64,000 nt of DNA from Synechococcaceae cyanobacterium SM2_3_2 (GTDB taxonomy: Bacteria > Cyanobacteriota > Cyanobacteriia > Thermostichales > Thermostichaceae), in the NCBI GenBank assembly GCA_012031565.1, contig JAAUUM010000001.1:6981-70980 (forward strand), given 5' to 3'. This document shows positions 6,010 through 32,029 of this stretch, piece by piece. The translations under genes were made by a program, and so were the position numbers. Positions within the stretch are counted from its first letter, which is position 1, and every line of letters starts with the position of its first letter. The notes beneath the pieces are model-generated. The model was not told the origin of the DNA, made no database searches, and worked only from the letters and a program-made list of their open reading frames with translations.

Positions 6010-6846
6010 CTAGGGTTGAGGGCGACTGTACCCCCATGCCCCCAGCACAGCCGCTGTCAGCCCCAAAAACAGGATCCCCATCACCCCCGCCAGGGGATTG
6101 CCATCAATGCCTGTGATCCAGGCAGGAACTTGGCCCGTATAGCGGATCCAATCGGCATGGTTAATCCAGGTAATGCCCGCGATCCAGCCTGCGTGTAATC
6201 CCAAGGCTAGGCCCAATCGCCCCTGCCCCACCTGCCGCCCATAGGCCAGGATCCAACCCATCACCACCAACCCTAAAAACTGCGGCCAAGTTTGGATAAT
6301 CACCTCTAGCGGCTTGAGAAAATGAGCCACCGCAAAGAGCACCGCCGTGCCCCAGCCAGCACTGGCCATGCCCCACTCGATCTGCCACTCCTGCAATAAC
6401 CAACCCCGAAACAAAAGCTCCTCCACCAAGGCCACTGCTGGCCCCAGCAGCAGACCATTTAGCAGCCCAACCCAGATAGCGAGGCTCGCCACCGATTGCC
6501 AGCTCAGCCACCCCAGGATCCCTTCTAGACCAAACAACAGGAATAGTCCCCCCAGCCCCAGGCCAAAAGCCAGCCCCAGCTCTTGCCAGAACAACCGGGA
6601 TCCCGTTAGACCGTAGTAGCCCCAGGGATCCCTCTGTTGCCGAGTCTCGGAGGCCCAGCCGCCCATGCCCCACATCAGCACACCATAGAGGGGCACCCAA
6701 GCCAAAGCAAAGGATCCCGTCACCACCCTGACCAGGATCCCCAAGGGCAGCGTCACCAGCAGCAGTAGACCAAGGAACCATACCAGTCGTAGGGGCAAGG
6801 GCAACGAGCGTGGCCAATGCCAAGGGATCCCAGTCGGAGGAGTCAA
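6010..6846 (-). CDS. CPBP family intramembrane glutamic endopeptidase (CAAX protease-like)
   Basis: Polytopic membrane protein with the EELLFRGWLL motif and a downstream FAVAHF motif. The TTG start overlaps the clpS stop (cgTTGAct). Confidence 0.75.
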   Translation of the reverse strand: MTPPTGIPWHWPRSLPLPLRLVWFLGLLLLVTLPLGILVRVVTGSFALAWVPLYGVLMWGMGGWASETRQQRDPWGYYGLTGSRLFWQELGLAFGLGLGGLFLLFGLEGILGWLSWQSVASLAIWVGLLNGLLLGPAVALVEELLFRGWLLQEWQIEWGMASAGWGTAVLFAVAHFLKPLEVIIQTWPQFLGLVVMGWILAYGRQVGQGRLGLALGLHAGWIAGITWINHADWIRYTGQVPAWITGIDGNPLAGVMGILFLGLTAAVLGAWGYSRPQP

Positions 6847-7124
6847 CGCTCGGGCTCAATCGTGCTGGACAATCCGTACAACTTCAGTTGTTCTGAATAA
6901 AACTCGGCGTGCTCTAGCGGCACCACAATCACCACCGCCATGCCATTGACATGAGCCTCCATCATGATGTCGGCGGCTTGGGGGGGCTGCATACCCGGAA
7001 TCGTCCGAATCAACACCTCCACCACATGCTCCATGGTGTTGAAGTCGTCGTTATGGAGCAATACCCGATACATGGGCATGTATTTGGGAGAAACGGAAGG
7101 TTTGGCCAGCGTTTCAATAGCCAC
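6843..7124 (-). CDS. clpS: ATP-dependent Clp protease adaptor ClpS
   Basis: 93 aa with MYRVLLHNDDFNTMEHVVEVLIRTIP and AADIMMEAHVNGMAVVIVVPLEHAEFY, typical of ClpS. Confidence 0.9.
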   Translation of the reverse strand: MAIETLAKPSVSPKYMPMYRVLLHNDDFNTMEHVVEVLIRTIPGMQPPQAADIMMEAHVNGMAVVIVVPLEHAEFYSEQLKLYGLSSTIEPER

Positions 7125-23030: not shown

Positions 23031-24244
23031 CATGGGGCAATAGGCCGATGAGGATTGGCCATGATCAGCTTCATCATCTGCTTTTGGTGGTGCTCAGTGT
23101 ACCAGCGCCCATAAGACTGCTCGTGGATCTTGACACTGTGCCCCATCTGCTTGGCAGCAGATCCGACATCTAGCCCATAGGCTGAGGCCCTGCCAGCCCA
23201 AGCATGTCTGAGGTCATAGGGATGAAAGGGGATGCCATGCTCTTTGAACTTGCGGTTCAGGGGGGCACTGGGAACCTGGTTCCTTGTGGGCCTTGGTGTG
23301 GGGGCATCCTGCAAGCCCCATTGCTGGATCCACTCAGGATGCAAGGGCAGGATCCCAGTCCTAAATCCTGTCTTACCACCCAAAAGCCTCAACAGAGGGG
23401 GATCCGCTCTCAGGCTGTCCAGATCCACACTCCAGAACTCAGCGGTTCGCAAGCCATAGCAGGCCATGATTCCATAGACCGTGGCCCACTCGGGATCCCG
23501 CTCTTGCAGGATGTAGAACCATTGGGAGATCATCTCATCACTGGGCACATCTCGGGGGGCAGCTTTCTTATCTTTCCCTTTAGGCCGATAGACCGACAGA
23601 TTCACCTCCACCTCTGCGAACCGGGCCAGCAGCGCCAGGGCGTTGACAAACCGCTCTCGCACGCGGGATCCCGCCTTGGTCGTGATGGTCAGGGCAATCA
23701 TGGCCTCTGCACTGAGGGGATCCTGTTGGGGCAGGTCTCGATAAACCCTGAGATAGTCTCTACTCCATGTGCTGTGACTGGCTGGAGTGTCTGGGCGGGT
23801 GGATCGATAATGCTGCTCTAGCTTGGGGATCCACTCAGCGATGGTCTGTGGTGGTAGATCTGAGGGCTGAGGCTTGGCACGAATATGGTCATCCCAGCAA
23901 AAGGATTCATCGGCCACTTGAACCGAGATCTGCCTTGCCTTTTTCTCCACCGCTGGCAGATTGCCGATGTTGGCAGGGATCCCGGTGGATAGGGGCTGCT
24001 GCTTAGGGGGATGGTCTTTCCCTGGCTTGGCTGGCAGGATCCCACGTAGGTAGAAATTGCGGCGGCGGATCTCAATCTTCATCCTGATGTTGCCCGCCTT
24101 GAGACTACCGTTGGCTTGTCGTAATCGGGCATCAAGAGCAGCCGATGCAGCCTTGATGGGGATGACCTTAACAAGGGGGGGATCGGAGCGTTGGCTACTA
24201 TGTTGGCTATTTATTTGGCGTGATTTGGAGCTATTTGGAGACAT
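23030..24244 (-). CDS. Tyrosine-type site-specific recombinase/phage integrase
   Basis: 404 aa. C-terminal catalytic region with GLRTAEF (R), HPYDLRHAWAGRA (HxxR) and SVKIHEQSYGRWY (Y). It lies 73 nt from the tRNA-His 3-prime end. Confidence 0.85.
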   Translation of the reverse strand: MSPNSSKSRQINSQHSSQRSDPPLVKVIPIKAASAALDARLRQANGSLKAGNIRMKIEIRRRNFYLRGILPAKPGKDHPPKQQPLSTGIPANIGNLPAVEKKARQISVQVADESFCWDDHIRAKPQPSDLPPQTIAEWIPKLEQHYRSTRPDTPASHSTWSRDYLRVYRDLPQQDPLSAEAMIALTITTKAGSRVRERFVNALALLARFAEVEVNLSVYRPKGKDKKAAPRDVPSDEMISQWFYILQERDPEWATVYGIMACYGLRTAEFWSVDLDSLRADPPLLRLLGGKTGFRTGILPLHPEWIQQWGLQDAPTPRPTRNQVPSAPLNRKFKEHGIPFHPYDLRHAWAGRASAYGLDVGSAAKQMGHSVKIHEQSYGRWYTEHHQKQMMKLIMANPHRPIAP

Positions 24245-28406: not shown

Positions 28407-30998
28407 ATGGATACTCGTACAAAATCACAACAGAAACCATTTATACTGAATTTAACAACGATGGTGCCCCTAATGTCTGTGCAACTCGTACCGCAGTGTA
28501 AAAATCTCAAAGATCAGGTTGAGGCGATTTTAAGCTTGTGGCAGCAGGATCCCGTCCTCCAAGGGAAGTTAGACCCGACACGGATCCAATCCTCGCTCAG
28601 CAAAGCCATTTCCCCCACCTTCGAGATTGTCTTTGCTGGGGCTTTCAGCGCAGGTAAATCCATGCTGATCAACGCCTTGCTGGAAAGGGAGCTACTCTAC
28701 AGTGCTGAGGGGCACGCCACCGGAACTGAATGCTATATTGCTTATGCAGAAGCTGATCAGGAGCGAGTCGTACTGACCTTCTTGAGCGAACAGCAAGTGC
28801 GTGAACAGGTGATCGCGTTCTGTAGCCGACTCAATCTTCTTTCTCCCAACAGTTTGGACGGCAACACTTTAAAATCTCTGCATGAACAAGCTGACGCCAT
28901 CATTCAGCAAGAAGGGGGAAAGAGCAAGTCAGAACGGGCTAAGCAAGCGGATGCTCTAAGTTTGCTGATTGATGGATTTCAGCAGAATCAAGCCAGCATC
29001 CATCCTACCGAAAATAAAGTATTTTCGATGGAACAATTTAATTTTAGCAATCTCAAGGAGGCAGCTGGTTTCGCCCGTCGGGGAGCCAATAGTGCGGTGC
29101 TCTGGAAAGTGGAATACTACTGCCATCACCCCTTGCTCAAGGATGGAAATGTTATTGTTGACACCCCTGGAATTGATGCTCCTGTCAAAGCAGATGCCGA
29201 TCGCACTTACAACAAAATTGCCGATCCTGATACGTCCGCAGTGATATGTGTATTAAAGTCCGCTGCCACTGGCGAACTGACCCAAGAAGAAACCGATTTA
29301 ATCGAGCGCATTCAGGCCAATGCAAGCATTCGAGATCGAGTTTTCTATGTATTTAATCGTATTGACGAAACATGGTATAATACTCAACTCAGGCAAAGGT
29401 TAGATAACATCATTAATCAGCAGTTTAAGCAACTAAGAATCTTCAAAACGAGTGGATTGTTGGGATTCTATGGATCCCAGATCAAGGCAGCTAAAGCAGA
29501 GGAAAGATTTGGACTTAATACTCTATTTGCTGAGAGCATCAAGGGTCTGGGTGGGATAGAAGAAGTTCCTCAATTTGTAAGTGAGTTCAACAAGTATTGT
29601 GGATCAGGTAAATTAGTCGGTAGCACATTTCGTACATCAATTTATACCTATGAGACACCCCTAGAAAACTATGTTCGGATCTTGACTGAGTGTGGCCAGC
29701 CTTTGATTCAACATATGATCAAAGATAGCGGGATCGAAGATTTCCGTTCAGGTATTACCCGCTATCTGACCGAAGAGAAACGTCCTCAACTCTTTGCTGC
29801 GCTAGCAGATGATTTGCAACCACTATGTATTGAACTGCGTAAGGCTTACCTAGCTCTCTATGGACATCTTGACAGCCAACCGCGAGAAGTAGAAGGGATG
29901 ATCGCTCATGAATTACTCCTAATCAATCAACAGTTATCTCAGATTGGCAGAGATTTCAGCGAACATATGGATAATATGGTTAACGATGTGATTGATGGCA
30001 CAGACAAAGAGTTTGAAGCAGATTTTAGGAAATTACAGTCTAAGATGGTACGCCGCTTAGATGAGTTATTAGACACCTTCTCTGTCGATGATGCTTACAG
30101 TCGAGCCATTCGTAATCACCCTCGAAATTCTACTGCTCCTCTGCTAGCAGTTTTGGTGGAAGCATTTTACTATCTATCAAATGAGCTGGAAGATATTTTA
30201 GTTGGCTCTGCTGAGATGATAGCTGAGGGATTTTTTCATCGCCTCAATAGTGAGGTCAGAAATTCTGATTATTATCGCCAACTCTTTCGATTGTTGGGAT
30301 CCGATAATGATCTAGAGAAAAAACTACTGCTTGTAGAAGAGGTTACCCGTAGCTCATTGATAAATGGTGCGCGCAAGGAATGTGATCGATATGTGCGAGA
30401 AAGTCCCCGGTTCTATGATGAAGGCACGTTTTCAATCTATCAGTTTCGAGAGGTATTGAAGCAAACTTCTCAATCTTATGATATTTTGGCAATTAAGGAC
30501 GCGGAGCCAGGGATCCGACAATTGCTCAAGCTCGATTTTGAACCTAAGATCGGTCAGACTGTTCGATCTCATTTCCGCCAAGAAACTAATAATACCCTCA
30601 AAACTCAACTTTTGCCAATCGGGAAACAGGTGTCAGATGAGATTTTGCAGAAATATCCTCAAGCTAAGCATTTCATGGAGCAAACTCTCAAAAAAGAGGC
30701 CGCAGAAAAAATAGAACTTAATCAGCATCATCTCAATAGTCTGAAAATCAATATACGCAACTATAATCAGGCCGTTAGTGGGATAAACCTTTGCTTACAG
30801 ACTTTGCATCTAGATCGTGAGATATTACCCTTAATTGACTACTCCGAGTTTCAAGGATTGAATCTTGATCTCAACAATGAAGATACTTCAGACAAATCGG
30901 CTATTCAGGACGCTCCAGAAGAACCAGAAATTAGAGATGTGATTGTTGATTCAGATATGGCTTCCGAGTCAGATAGTATTCTCGATGATTTAAGGTAA
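28407..30998 (+). CDS. Dynamin family GTPase (bacterial dynamin-like protein)
   Basis: 863 aa. G1 FEIVFAGAFSAGKSMLINALL, G3 VIVDTPGIDAP, G4-like YVFNRID, followed by about 500 aa of helical stalk-like sequence and an acidic tail ending SESDSILDDLR. Alternative start MVPLMSV at 28461. Confidence 0.85.
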   Translation: MDTRTKSQQKPFILNLTTMVPLMSVQLVPQCKNLKDQVEAILSLWQQDPVLQGKLDPTRIQSSLSKAISPTFEIVFAGAFSAGKSMLINALLERELLYSAEGHATGTECYIAYAEADQERVVLTFLSEQQVREQVIAFCSRLNLLSPNSLDGNTLKSLHEQADAIIQQEGGKSKSERAKQADALSLLIDGFQQNQASIHPTENKVFSMEQFNFSNLKEAAGFARRGANSAVLWKVEYYCHHPLLKDGNVIVDTPGIDAPVKADADRTYNKIADPDTSAVICVLKSAATGELTQEETDLIERIQANASIRDRVFYVFNRIDETWYNTQLRQRLDNIINQQFKQLRIFKTSGLLGFYGSQIKAAKAEERFGLNTLFAESIKGLGGIEEVPQFVSEFNKYCGSGKLVGSTFRTSIYTYETPLENYVRILTECGQPLIQHMIKDSGIEDFRSGITRYLTEEKRPQLFAALADDLQPLCIELRKAYLALYGHLDSQPREVEGMIAHELLLINQQLSQIGRDFSEHMDNMVNDVIDGTDKEFEADFRKLQSKMVRRLDELLDTFSVDDAYSRAIRNHPRNSTAPLLAVLVEAFYYLSNELEDILVGSAEMIAEGFFHRLNSEVRNSDYYRQLFRLLGSDNDLEKKLLLVEEVTRSSLINGARKECDRYVRESPRFYDEGTFSIYQFREVLKQTSQSYDILAIKDAEPGIRQLLKLDFEPKIGQTVRSHFRQETNNTLKTQLLPIGKQVSDEILQKYPQAKHFMEQTLKKEAAEKIELNQHHLNSLKINIRNYNQAVSGINLCLQTLHLDREILPLIDYSEFQGLNLDLNNEDTSDKSAIQDAPEEPEIRDVIVDSDMASESDSILDDLR

Positions 30999-31046
30999 GA
31001 ATTCATTTGATTTGTATACCCATCTTTTTTCAAGGTTAGTTAGATT

Positions 31047-31436
31047 ATGCCATTAGAACAGATTGATTTGAGTCAATACCCGGAAGGGATCCTTTCTGTC
31101 GGAGAAAAGAACTTTAAGATTTCCACCTTGCTCAAGGCAGCTCAGAATGATTTGGCAAAGAAAGAAGAGCTAAACCGTTTGTTTATCTCTGCTCTCCGAA
31201 CAACTGGGATCCTTGCACCTGATGACTTGATTAATATTGCTAGTAGCCTCCTTGCTCCAAAATCAGAAGAGAAGTCCTTGGAGGAAACTAAGTGGTTTGG
31301 AGATGGTTTGATCTGCCAGATACTGATTCCAAACCAGAAAGAGTGGGAGGTAGGTAAACTAAAACTTAGAATAACAGTTGATTTTGAAACTGATGCACCT
31401 AAAAGTGAATCTCCACTTAATGACTTTCGCAGTTAA
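31047..31436 (+). CDS. KGK-domain-like small protein, paralog 1
   Basis: 129 aa. The C-terminal core KWFGDGLICQILIPNQKEWEVGKLKLRITVDFETD aligns with the next ORF and with my memory of the cyanobacterial KGK domain (W..GK..I...EF.PD). Tail SESPLNDFRS. Confidence 0.55.
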   Translation: MPLEQIDLSQYPEGILSVGEKNFKISTLLKAAQNDLAKKEELNRLFISALRTTGILAPDDLINIASSLLAPKSEEKSLEETKWFGDGLICQILIPNQKEWEVGKLKLRITVDFETDAPKSESPLNDFRS

Positions 31437-31469
31437 TATCTTTGCTATAAATTAGAGAATGGAGACAGA

Positions 31470-31877
31470 GTGATGGAAGAGATATATTGCGATTTAGTTG
31501 AATTCAATGATGGCGTTATTGCTTTTGATGAGGGAACCTGTATGGTAGATAGATTTATTAATTTATCTGAGAAGTCTATATTACAATACCCTTCTCTTGG
31601 TTCTGGCCTTACCAATCATTTGAGAGGTCATGCTCAACTCAAGATCAGTCCACCTCAAAACAACCATGCAAATTGGTTTAATAATCAAGGGATTCCTTGT
31701 TCCATACTTTCGCCAGAAACAAACGGATGGCAAAAAGGTAGAGTCAAAATCAATGTACAGGTGACGGTCGAGTTTTATCCCGATGATCCTGAATCGTTTC
31801 TAACAAGTTGTAGTCCAAGTGGAGAATCCCCAGAATCTCTTTTGGATGATATTCGGAGTCTGGAAGATCAAGCATGA
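31470..31877 (+). CDS. KGK-domain-like small protein, paralog 2
   Basis: 135 aa (ATG at 31473). Core NWFNNQGIPCSILSPETNGWQKGRVKINVQVTVEFYPDDPE, tail GESPESLLDDIRSLEDQA. GGAGA lies upstream of the start. Confidence 0.55.
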   Translation: MMEEIYCDLVEFNDGVIAFDEGTCMVDRFINLSEKSILQYPSLGSGLTNHLRGHAQLKISPPQNNHANWFNNQGIPCSILSPETNGWQKGRVKINVQVTVEFYPDDPESFLTSCSPSGESPESLLDDIRSLEDQA

Positions 31878-32029
31878 GAGAGAAAAAGACCCCCCAACGG
31901 ATCCCTATCCCAACCTCTGTCCGTGGCTACATATTCACCAGAGACAAGCATCAATGTCAGGGGTGTGGAAAAAAGGGATCCCAAGCCCAACTCCAGTTTG
32001 AATTAGAGATTGAATCCGGTGAGATCTAG
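31874..32029 (+). pseudogene. HNH endonuclease N-terminal remnant
   Basis: 51-codon ORF whose ATG overlaps the KGK2 stop (ATGA): [51 protein letters not shown]. The IP..VR..(V/I)..RD...C..CG pattern is the start of an HNH domain. The catalytic D/H-H...N part is missing. Confidence 0.5.

Follow-up and report, generated by a model that had tools for sequence, protein, structure and literature searches.

A conserved C-terminal peptide on a cyanobacterial dynamin-like GTPase and its KGK-family neighbors as a candidate docking motif

Among bacterial dynamins that assemble in a eukaryote-like manner, those of the SynDLP type are the best studied. In eukaryotes, dynamin binds SH3-domain partners through its proline-rich domain, and FtsZ and SSB offer further cases of conserved, hub-binding C-terminal peptides that stand behind a disordered linker; at the level of whole systems, Kaur, Burroughs, Iyer and Aravind reportedly described in 2020 effector-associated domains in conflict systems centered on NTPases. 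The published hallmark of the KGK clade of cyanobacterial dynamin-like proteins (DLPs) is the presence of KGK genes 3′ of the DLP gene (Jilly et al. 2018, PMC5827413; Gewehr et al. 2023, PMC10104851), and both papers term the function of the KGK domain enigmatic. Here we analyze such a locus in a stretch of 64,000 nucleotides (nt) from Synechococcaceae cyanobacterium SM2_3_2 (contig JAAUUM010000001.1, positions 6,981 to 70,980; the whole stretch is called the window below). A KGK-clade DLP gene is directly followed there by two KGK genes, KGK1 and KGK2, and the three products end in copies of one short peptide, which we call the box. The genes and box copies are as follows (window positions; aa, amino acids; ORF, open reading frame):

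28407 to 30998, forward strand: dynamin-like GTPase (DLP), an ORF of 863 aa, of the KGK clade and orthologous to SynDLP/Slr0869
30849 to 30995, forward strand: acidic C-terminal tail of the DLP (residues 815-863), predicted to be disordered from the AlphaFold2 (AF2) model and acidic from its isoelectric point (pI)
30966 to 30995, forward strand: DLP copy of the box, ESDSILDDLR, ending at the extreme C-terminus, with its core S-I-L-D-D-L-R at 30975-30995
31047 to 31436, forward strand: KGK1, 129 aa (Pfam PF08872, 6.8e-16, 59.2 bits)
31407 to 31430, forward strand: box of KGK1, ESPLNDFR (variant residues Asn and Phe), with one residue after it
31470 to 31877, forward strand: KGK2, 135 aa, with a GTG start and ATG as the next codon (PF08872, 1.2e-20, 74.6 bits)
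31833 to 31856, forward strand: box of KGK2, ESLLDDIR, with SLEDQA after it

A sequence-only reading of the window had reported the same tail peptide on all three products, and the ORF ends do read in this way, with ...MASESDSILDDLR closing the DLP, ...APKSESPLNDFRS closing KGK1, and ...SGESPESLLDDIRSLEDQA closing KGK2. The pentapeptide cores lie at 30981-30995, 31416-31430, and 31842-31856, respectively, and the part common to the three is S-x-L-[DN]-D-[LIF]-R with a Glu-Ser pair 1 to 3 residues upstream. The formula first proposed for it, ES-x(0-3)-L-x-D-[DF]-[LIF]-R, holds one position too many and is matched literally by KGK2 alone (1 of 90 KGK ORFs), so we do not retain it. The frequency of the motif was determined in the ORFs of 81 cyanobacterial loci, with the last 30 residues of each ORF scored for L[DN]D[LIF]R. 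The pentapeptide was found in 78/90 KGK ORFs and 7/82 DLP ORFs, and in the 195,782 residues that make up the long ORFs of these loci it occurs anywhere but once. The sequence-only reading would have failed had the motif been ubiquitous on unrelated proteins; with 0/3127 of the other ORF tails carrying it against 78 of the 90 KGK ORFs, it is not. In the whole 64-kb window, a relaxed six-frame scan returned 6 matches, among which only the reported three combine a preceding S-x with placement at an ORF end. The agreement of the three tails is far beyond chance. Their Leu, Ser, and Arg codons differ from copy to copy, which indicates that the conservation of the tails acts at the protein level. 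Recent gene conversion among the three tails of the window is ruled out by the same differences, the box serine being encoded by AGY in the DLP and by TCN in the KGK genes.

KGK1 and KGK2 are ordinary members of the KGK family (PF08872), and the box falls within the last positions of the Pfam model: residues 14-128 of KGK1 match profile positions 12-116 of 119, and residues 11-130 of KGK2 match positions 7-117 of 119 (cut-off, 25.6 bits). The W-x-K-G-K strand is present in variant form in both (WEVGKLKL in KGK1 and WQKGRVKI in KGK2), its Trp and Gly being invariant or almost so in KGK alignments. A profile search of 1.84 billion representatives recovered 1554 KGK clusters, the best 150 of which, with mutual identities of ≤50%, were examined. 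Among these 150 representatives, L-[DNE]-[DE]-phi-R (phi, hydrophobic) is present in 142 and the preceding S-x in 136, and the box ends 1 to 15 residues from the C-terminus (mode, 7); the consensus is E-S-P-L-D-D-[L/I]-R (consensus peptide, PESPLDDLRRMINE). Five columns, G74, W87, S123, L125, and R129, are invariant when 24 KGK proteins sharing about 30% identity with one another are aligned, and D126 and D127 are conserved at ≥90%, so that the box is better conserved than the residues that gave the family its name. The box Arg is position 116 of the 119 in the PF08872 profile. As the box lies inside the Pfam model and is the most conserved element of the family, KGK1 and KGK2 have their copies by common descent, and this half of the finding is implicit in the existing Pfam annotation. 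A literature search found no published mention of a C-terminal KGK box, and the KGK/DLP papers that we found (PMC5827413, PMC10104851) leave undescribed the box, its character as a linear motif, its copies on DLP tails, and the HNH nuclease gene at the operon end that is described below.

KGK gene number varies among the 81 loci, with 0, 1, 2, 3, 4, and 5 copies at 30, 27, 15, 5, 3, and 1 loci, respectively. The LNDFR variant of KGK1 recurs as SSLNDFRS in the close relatives L217-L219. We considered whether this variant could have resulted from the loss of the HNH gene, which is truncated in the window, and rejected it because L217-L219 have the same variant with the HNH gene intact. Some KGK proteins contain two KGK domains (P0151, 235 aa; P0184, 263 aa; P0243, 461 aa). 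In the tandem protein P0151, the first KGK domain is followed by ESLLDDIH, His replacing the invariant Arg, and the second by DSPLDDIR. The acidic repeats of P0243, about five in number (EEEELQLDDDFSSEPDLDFGAEA), may be a multivalent variant of the tail; the protein ends in DDLFDDVWQDMQ. Short KGK proteins of 103 to 104 aa with the box NFLDDLRKD are encoded at L081 (8001-8315; P0148) and L085 (3063-3374; P0147) with no DLP gene nearby. The one at L081 adjoins genes for a phage-type integrase and for AcrVA2-like, Phage_L5_gp82, and HNH_2 proteins, surroundings that look like a mobile element, and its organism, Symplocastrum torsivum, also has a complete DLP-KGK-HNH operon (L013).

Between the W-x-KGK strand and the box lie 12 to 59 residues, composed of 21% Glu, 13% Pro, and 11% Ser (Asp plus Glu, 27%; Lys plus Arg, 5.7%). 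An acidic disordered stretch in front of the motif had been proposed from the window alone, and the predictions agree: the linkers are acid-rich, the pI of the DLP tail is 4.05, and the AF2 confidence score (predicted local distance difference test [pLDDT]) is <50 in this stretch. In the AF2 model of KGK2 (mean pLDDT, 68), the core is moderately confident, residues 114-123 fall below 50, and a low-confidence helix spans the box at 125-132 (pLDDT of about 50 for residues 121-135); the Ser-Pro-x-Asp start of the box resembles a helix N-cap. In the DLP model, disorder is predicted for residues 819-863 (pLDDT, 33-41), which include a short helix (857-862). The tail exits beyond the final helix of the bundle signaling element (BSE3), beside the GTPase domain, and in SynDLP the corresponding 19 C-terminal residues are not resolved by cryo-electron microscopy. 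These features are those of a short linear motif, namely, a conserved island within a disordered region of variable length and sequence that is present on unrelated proteins (the KGK family and three separate DLP clades). The docking-type motif suggested by the sequence-only reading is accordingly strengthened, as the invariant island, the variable linker, the predicted disorder with a nascent helix, and the purifying selection that is apparent on two types of protein would all be expected of it; as deduced from sequence comparison and modeling, this interpretation is well supported in kind and unproven in detail. The organization parallels that of FtsZ and SSB, with a folded core, a variable linker, and a short, near-invariant C-terminal peptide, although the sequences are unrelated. 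There, however, one hub bears the peptide and has many partners, whereas here many paralogs and some DLPs bear one and the same peptide.

The likeness to FtsZ and SSB also raises the possibility that the box is read by a factor outside the operon, be it a cellular hub, a protease or chaperone adaptor, or an export system. Conserved C-terminal peptides behind disordered linkers usually bind hubs, as in those two proteins; KGK genes occur on their own; and the absence of a demonstrated receptor within the operon may be counted in favor of an outside one. If the box were a tag for degradation or for a general hub, more clients should bear it, but no other family carrying the box was found, be it among the 3127 control tails or among the metagenome matches listed. 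The metagenome sample was searched with a degenerate DNA pattern for ESPLDDLR: among the at least 124 pattern matches listed, KGK ORFs account for 29, of which 28 lie near the C-terminus, and the remainder are out-of-frame or internal chance matches that include no recurrent non-KGK family. Viral contigs, scanned twice with degenerate patterns, yielded only four matches, all by chance (in a tape-measure protein and in 37-codon ORFs). The restriction to KGK proteins and the chance nature of the viral matches indicate that the box is no general tag. Nor do the tails resemble sorting or degradation signals of the PEP-CTERM or ssrA type, as they are acidic and polar throughout and anything from 0 to 15 residues may follow the box, with polar ends, unlike degrons that need the extreme C-terminus. 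The earlier suggestion of a protease or secretion signal is made unlikely by the same observations, together with the lack of a hydrophobic segment and of a signal peptide in the tails and the finding that the S9 peptidase encoded near the window's operon is not a conserved neighbor. A reader outside the operon is therefore, in our estimate, very unlikely.

The presence of the box on DLPs is the unexpected, lineage-restricted half of the finding and appears to be new. Scored with a box matrix, about 14 to 15 of 177 distinct DLP tails exceed the 99th percentile of shuffles; such C-termini are thus general among KGK proteins (142/150) and not among DLPs. In a neighbor-joining tree built without the tails, the box-bearing DLPs fall into three separate groups. 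(i) In the window's clade, all members have D-[SGN]-[IF]-L-D-D-L-[RT] at the extreme C-terminus. (ii) Three Okeania genomes have E-[VI]-S-P-L-D-D-L-R-R-x-M-N-L-N-S. (iii) A single lineage (P0099/L216) has ESPLDDIRQQMV. Among eight window-clade DLPs, the mean column identity rises from 0.43 in the linker of about 45 residues to 0.93 in the last 10 columns, the helix that precedes the linker reaching 0.73. In a comparison of the window with L001, L002, and L003, 7/8 of the box codons differ synonymously and none (0) nonsynonymously. Across the window's clade, the box has been retained through about 27% protein divergence. Judged from these alignments and codons, the DLP box is under purifying selection while the linker drifts. 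Box-bearing DLP tails are also the longest (51 to 65 aa versus a median of 38), and two to four KGK genes are present at each box-bearing DLP locus whose downstream sequence is unbroken, the mode overall being zero to one. The DLP of L004 and P0007 end in LDDLT rather than LDDLR. At L004 (8578-8894), the KGK gene is split by a run of N (an assembly gap), perhaps with a frameshift, so that the locus cannot be scored for KGK number. KGK loss as the cause of the LDDLT ending of L004 can likewise not be claimed, because the KGK gene is present and merely broken by the gap.

The possibility that every KGK-clade DLP tail has the box in weakened form was ruled out, as beyond about 14 of the 177 the tails end otherwise. 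Boxless members of the clade (L012-L080, P0008-P0120) have recurrent ends of their own, ...ISDGLLDGVAQV, ...VDAVEV, and ...LLPIIGEEEV, which may be other C-terminal motifs. The box peptide has no match among PDB chains at E values of up to 10, and SynDLP seems to be without it. As to origin, the KGK profile is matched by the DLP tails of Okeania and P0099 from the linker through the box into the post-box residues (positions about 97-131; 13-19 bits), a pattern that, as far as profile matches can tell, would be expected had a KGK 3′ end been captured. The window-clade tail matches the profile at the box alone and uses AGY for the Ser that is TCN in KGK genes, implying that this copy is either old or convergent. 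A degenerate KGK domain hidden in the DLP tails was ruled out, since the KGK profile aligns only with the linker and box. These data bear directly on the view that there is no docking at all, the box being a structural helix that packs in cis on the KGK fold and its likeness to the DLP tails a by-product of recombination with no shared function. Such a helix would fit the position of the box within the Pfam domain model, its predicted helicity, and the captured appearance of the Okeania and P0099 tails. Yet a predicted disordered linker of 12 to 59 residues separates fold and box, the DLP tails have no KGK fold on which to pack, and the AGY Ser excludes a recent copy in the window's clade, where only synonymous change is seen at the four loci read at the DNA level while the linker drifts through about 27% divergence. 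Hence, we consider packing in cis to be highly improbable.

Box flavors are shared locally. Of 20 multi-KGK loci, 17 have the same residue throughout at the L/I position, where shuffling predicts 9.3; genome relatedness is a caveat to this comparison, and KGK paralogs of one locus are only about 30% identical in the body. In the Okeania loci, the DLP tails have the flavor of the KGK proteins (EVSPLDDLR in two loci and EISPLDDLR in the third); at L216, all four proteins have LDDIR; and at L002, the DLP and one KGK protein have DSILDDLR. Such sharing fits a common receptor and also gene conversion.

In the interpretation that we favor, and to which we would give slightly less than an even chance on the basis of these sequence comparisons, the KGK box is a linear motif that becomes helical when bound, and the tails of one cell share one receptor, preferably the assembled DLP. 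All box-bearing tails in a cell would then dock onto one common receptor surface, with a surface on the GTPase/BSE side of the assembled DLP being the preferred candidate. The KGK proteins would be accessory subunits of the DLP oligomer, anchored by their tails. Where the DLP has its own box, this might occupy the same site in cis or on a neighboring subunit, as a pseudo-ligand that competes with the KGK tails and so tunes assembly or GTPase activity. We rank the DLP as the likeliest receptor because KGK genes are tied to the DLP clade and because the exit point of the DLP tail, next to the GTPase/BSE region, is also that of the proline-rich recruitment tail in eukaryotic dynamin. The two tails are alike in being disordered, in exiting after the last BSE helix, and in connecting small partners through short motifs, but the dynamin motif is PxxP and that of the DLP an acidic, helical S-x-L-D-D-phi-R box. 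Moreover, GTPase and KGK partners here share one motif, unlike dynamin and its SH3-domain partners; an arrangement of this kind points to competition or mimicry more than to a plain pairing of ligand and receptor. The eight-residue box offers a concrete handle, testable with peptides, on what KGK proteins bind and how they might act on the dynamin.

The identity of the receptor is the weakest step in this proposal, and several observations weigh against it. The AF2 monomer leaves the DLP tail undocked from the body (tail pLDDT, 33-41). Most KGK-clade DLPs, apparently including the structurally studied SynDLP, are without the box, which would confine any autoregulatory role to certain lineages. 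No KGK gene is adjacent at 30/81 DLP loci, and KGK genes with an intact box also exist apart from any DLP gene. In 1648 tests of the L/I state against columns of the DLP or HNH alignments, p reached about 1e-4 at best, which is not significant and is confounded by phylogeny, and the uniformity within loci could come from gene conversion or shared ancestry.

The distribution of KGK genes also allows the globular KGK domain itself to be the receptor, with KGK proteins chained head to tail and a boxed DLP recruiting them onto its tail, so that a multivalent network forms around the oligomer. The expanded KGK arrays (two to four genes, against the mode of zero to one) at box-bearing DLP loci whose downstream sequence is unbroken, the box-like copy behind each KGK domain of P0151, the retention of the box by stand-alone KGK genes without an adjacent DLP, and the presence of a KGK domain in the locus wherever the box occurs would all follow. 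The AF2 model of KGK2, however, does not dock the tail confidently (pLDDT of about 50, residues 121-135), and a fold search with this model against the PDB found no match at E ≤0.001 and no relative hinting at a peptide groove, the model being of moderate confidence (pLDDT, 68). The link of the boxless DLP majority to its KGK neighbors is also left unexplained. We regard a KGK-domain receptor as unlikely, and docking on the assembled DLP remains our preference.

A further component of these operons is a small gene for an HNH endonuclease, which the 2018 review (PMC5827413) and the other dynamin papers that we found do not link to the DLPs. It encodes about 81 aa and follows the DLP/KGK array on the same strand in 41/73 loci with sufficient downstream sequence; in 8 of these 41, its start overlaps the last KGK stop. 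Intact homologs match Pfam HNH_5 (1.1e-19) and HNH. In the window, only a remnant is left, which matches the intact 80- to 95-aa HNH proteins of the 41 other loci (phmmer, 2.7e-11); tblastn aligns only residues 1-43 of the L001 HNH protein, and the catalytic DHIIP...N part is gone. At L217-L219, the gene is intact with a GTG start and was overlooked by gene callers. The remnant and examples of the intact gene are as follows:

31874 to 32029 of the window, forward strand: HNH endonuclease remnant, 51 aa, its start overlapping the KGK2 stop (ATGA)
L001, 4872 to 5114: intact HNH gene
L216, 10829 to 11071: intact HNH gene
L217, about 6828 to 7067: intact HNH gene

The core motif is present in none of the HNH ORFs (0/42). 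The HNH protein is thereby the sole operon member that never bears the box, and this, with its basic character (pI 9.6-10.3, against 4.0-4.8 for the tails and KGK proteins) and the position of its gene 3′ of the KGK array (41/73 loci, with the overlap in 8), would suit a receptor to which the acidic tails tether the DLP/KGK assembly or whose DNA-binding face they mask until release. Charge complementarity is generic, however, and no HNH column covaries with the box variant. Twelve loci have KGK genes with no HNH gene in reach, six have the HNH gene without KGK, and in the window itself the three boxes are intact beside a truncated HNH gene. For these reasons, we hold the HNH protein to be a doubtful candidate for the receptor, and quite unlikely.

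The sequence-only reading had also likened the box to the effector-associated adaptor tags of conflict systems. The resemblance is that a shared element links a large NTPase and adjacent small proteins, with a nuclease gene in the operon. In those systems, though, the shared element is a globular domain, and here it is a peptide of 7 to 8 residues that is predicted to be disordered or a short helix; their logic also expects the element on the effector, and here the sole candidate effector, the HNH protein, is unboxed. We therefore set the likeness aside. PADLOC detected no known defense system, only generic P-loop and HNH matches. Its LeoA match, which would point to Eleos, is confined to DLP residues 66-93 around the P-loop (34.8 bits), no stretch passed as LeoBC by itself, and the KGK proteins match neither LeoA nor LeoBC. 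The operon-end HNH gene nonetheless raises the question of whether this DLP clade acts solely in membrane remodeling. It is conceivable, if rather improbable, that DLP, KGK proteins in variable number, and HNH form a three-component, nuclease-bearing system, possibly for conflict or defense, with the box as its assembly code. KGK arrays and some DLP tails might then compete for one site and so couple the GTPase scaffold to the release or activation of the HNH nuclease, and the system might have a defense role instead of, or besides, one in thylakoid remodeling.

The DLP matches Pfam Dynamin_N (2.1e-15), and its residues 26-814 align with residues 3-794 of SynDLP/Slr0869 from Synechocystis (PDB code 7zw6; E = 4.9e-299). 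Its cysteines C31 and C796 are invariant in the DLP alignments and align with Cys8 and Cys777 of the SynDLP chain, which we take to be the disulfide residues of that protein. Two BSE cysteines are kept clade-wide (PMC10104851). Residues 78-92 (GAFSAGKSMLINALL) agree with the extended P-loop motif GxxxxGKS/TxL/INALL/I defined for cyanobacterial DLPs (PMC5827413). The nearest DLP (P0001/L001) is 92% identical, and the closest homologs cover 97% of the query. Over its final 40 residues, KGK1 is identical to P0134, a protein of Synechococcaceae cyanobacterium SM2_3_2. The likely start of the DLP is Met23 at 28473, giving about 841 aa, and codons 1-22 (28407-28472) are probably untranslated; this start is probable because homologs have 839 to 844 aa, alignments begin at about residues 23 to 26, and the AF2 pLDDT is <50 for residues 1-24. 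The intergenic gaps are 48 nt (DLP-KGK1) and 33 nt (KGK1-KGK2), with no terminator-like site among the DLP, KGK1, and KGK2 genes, and the order DLP then KGK, as in the window, is found in 47/73 loci with sufficient downstream sequence. The flanking genes are housekeeping-like, encoding a 940-aa alpha-amylase-family protein, the S9 peptidase, a diaminopimelate-decarboxylase-like protein, a ferredoxin-NADP-reductase-like protein, and an OprB porin, which places the module outside any obvious defense island. A further flanking ORF, of 404 aa and on the reverse strand (23033-24244), has a sub-threshold match to Phage_integrase (19.9 bits against a cut-off of 27.1).

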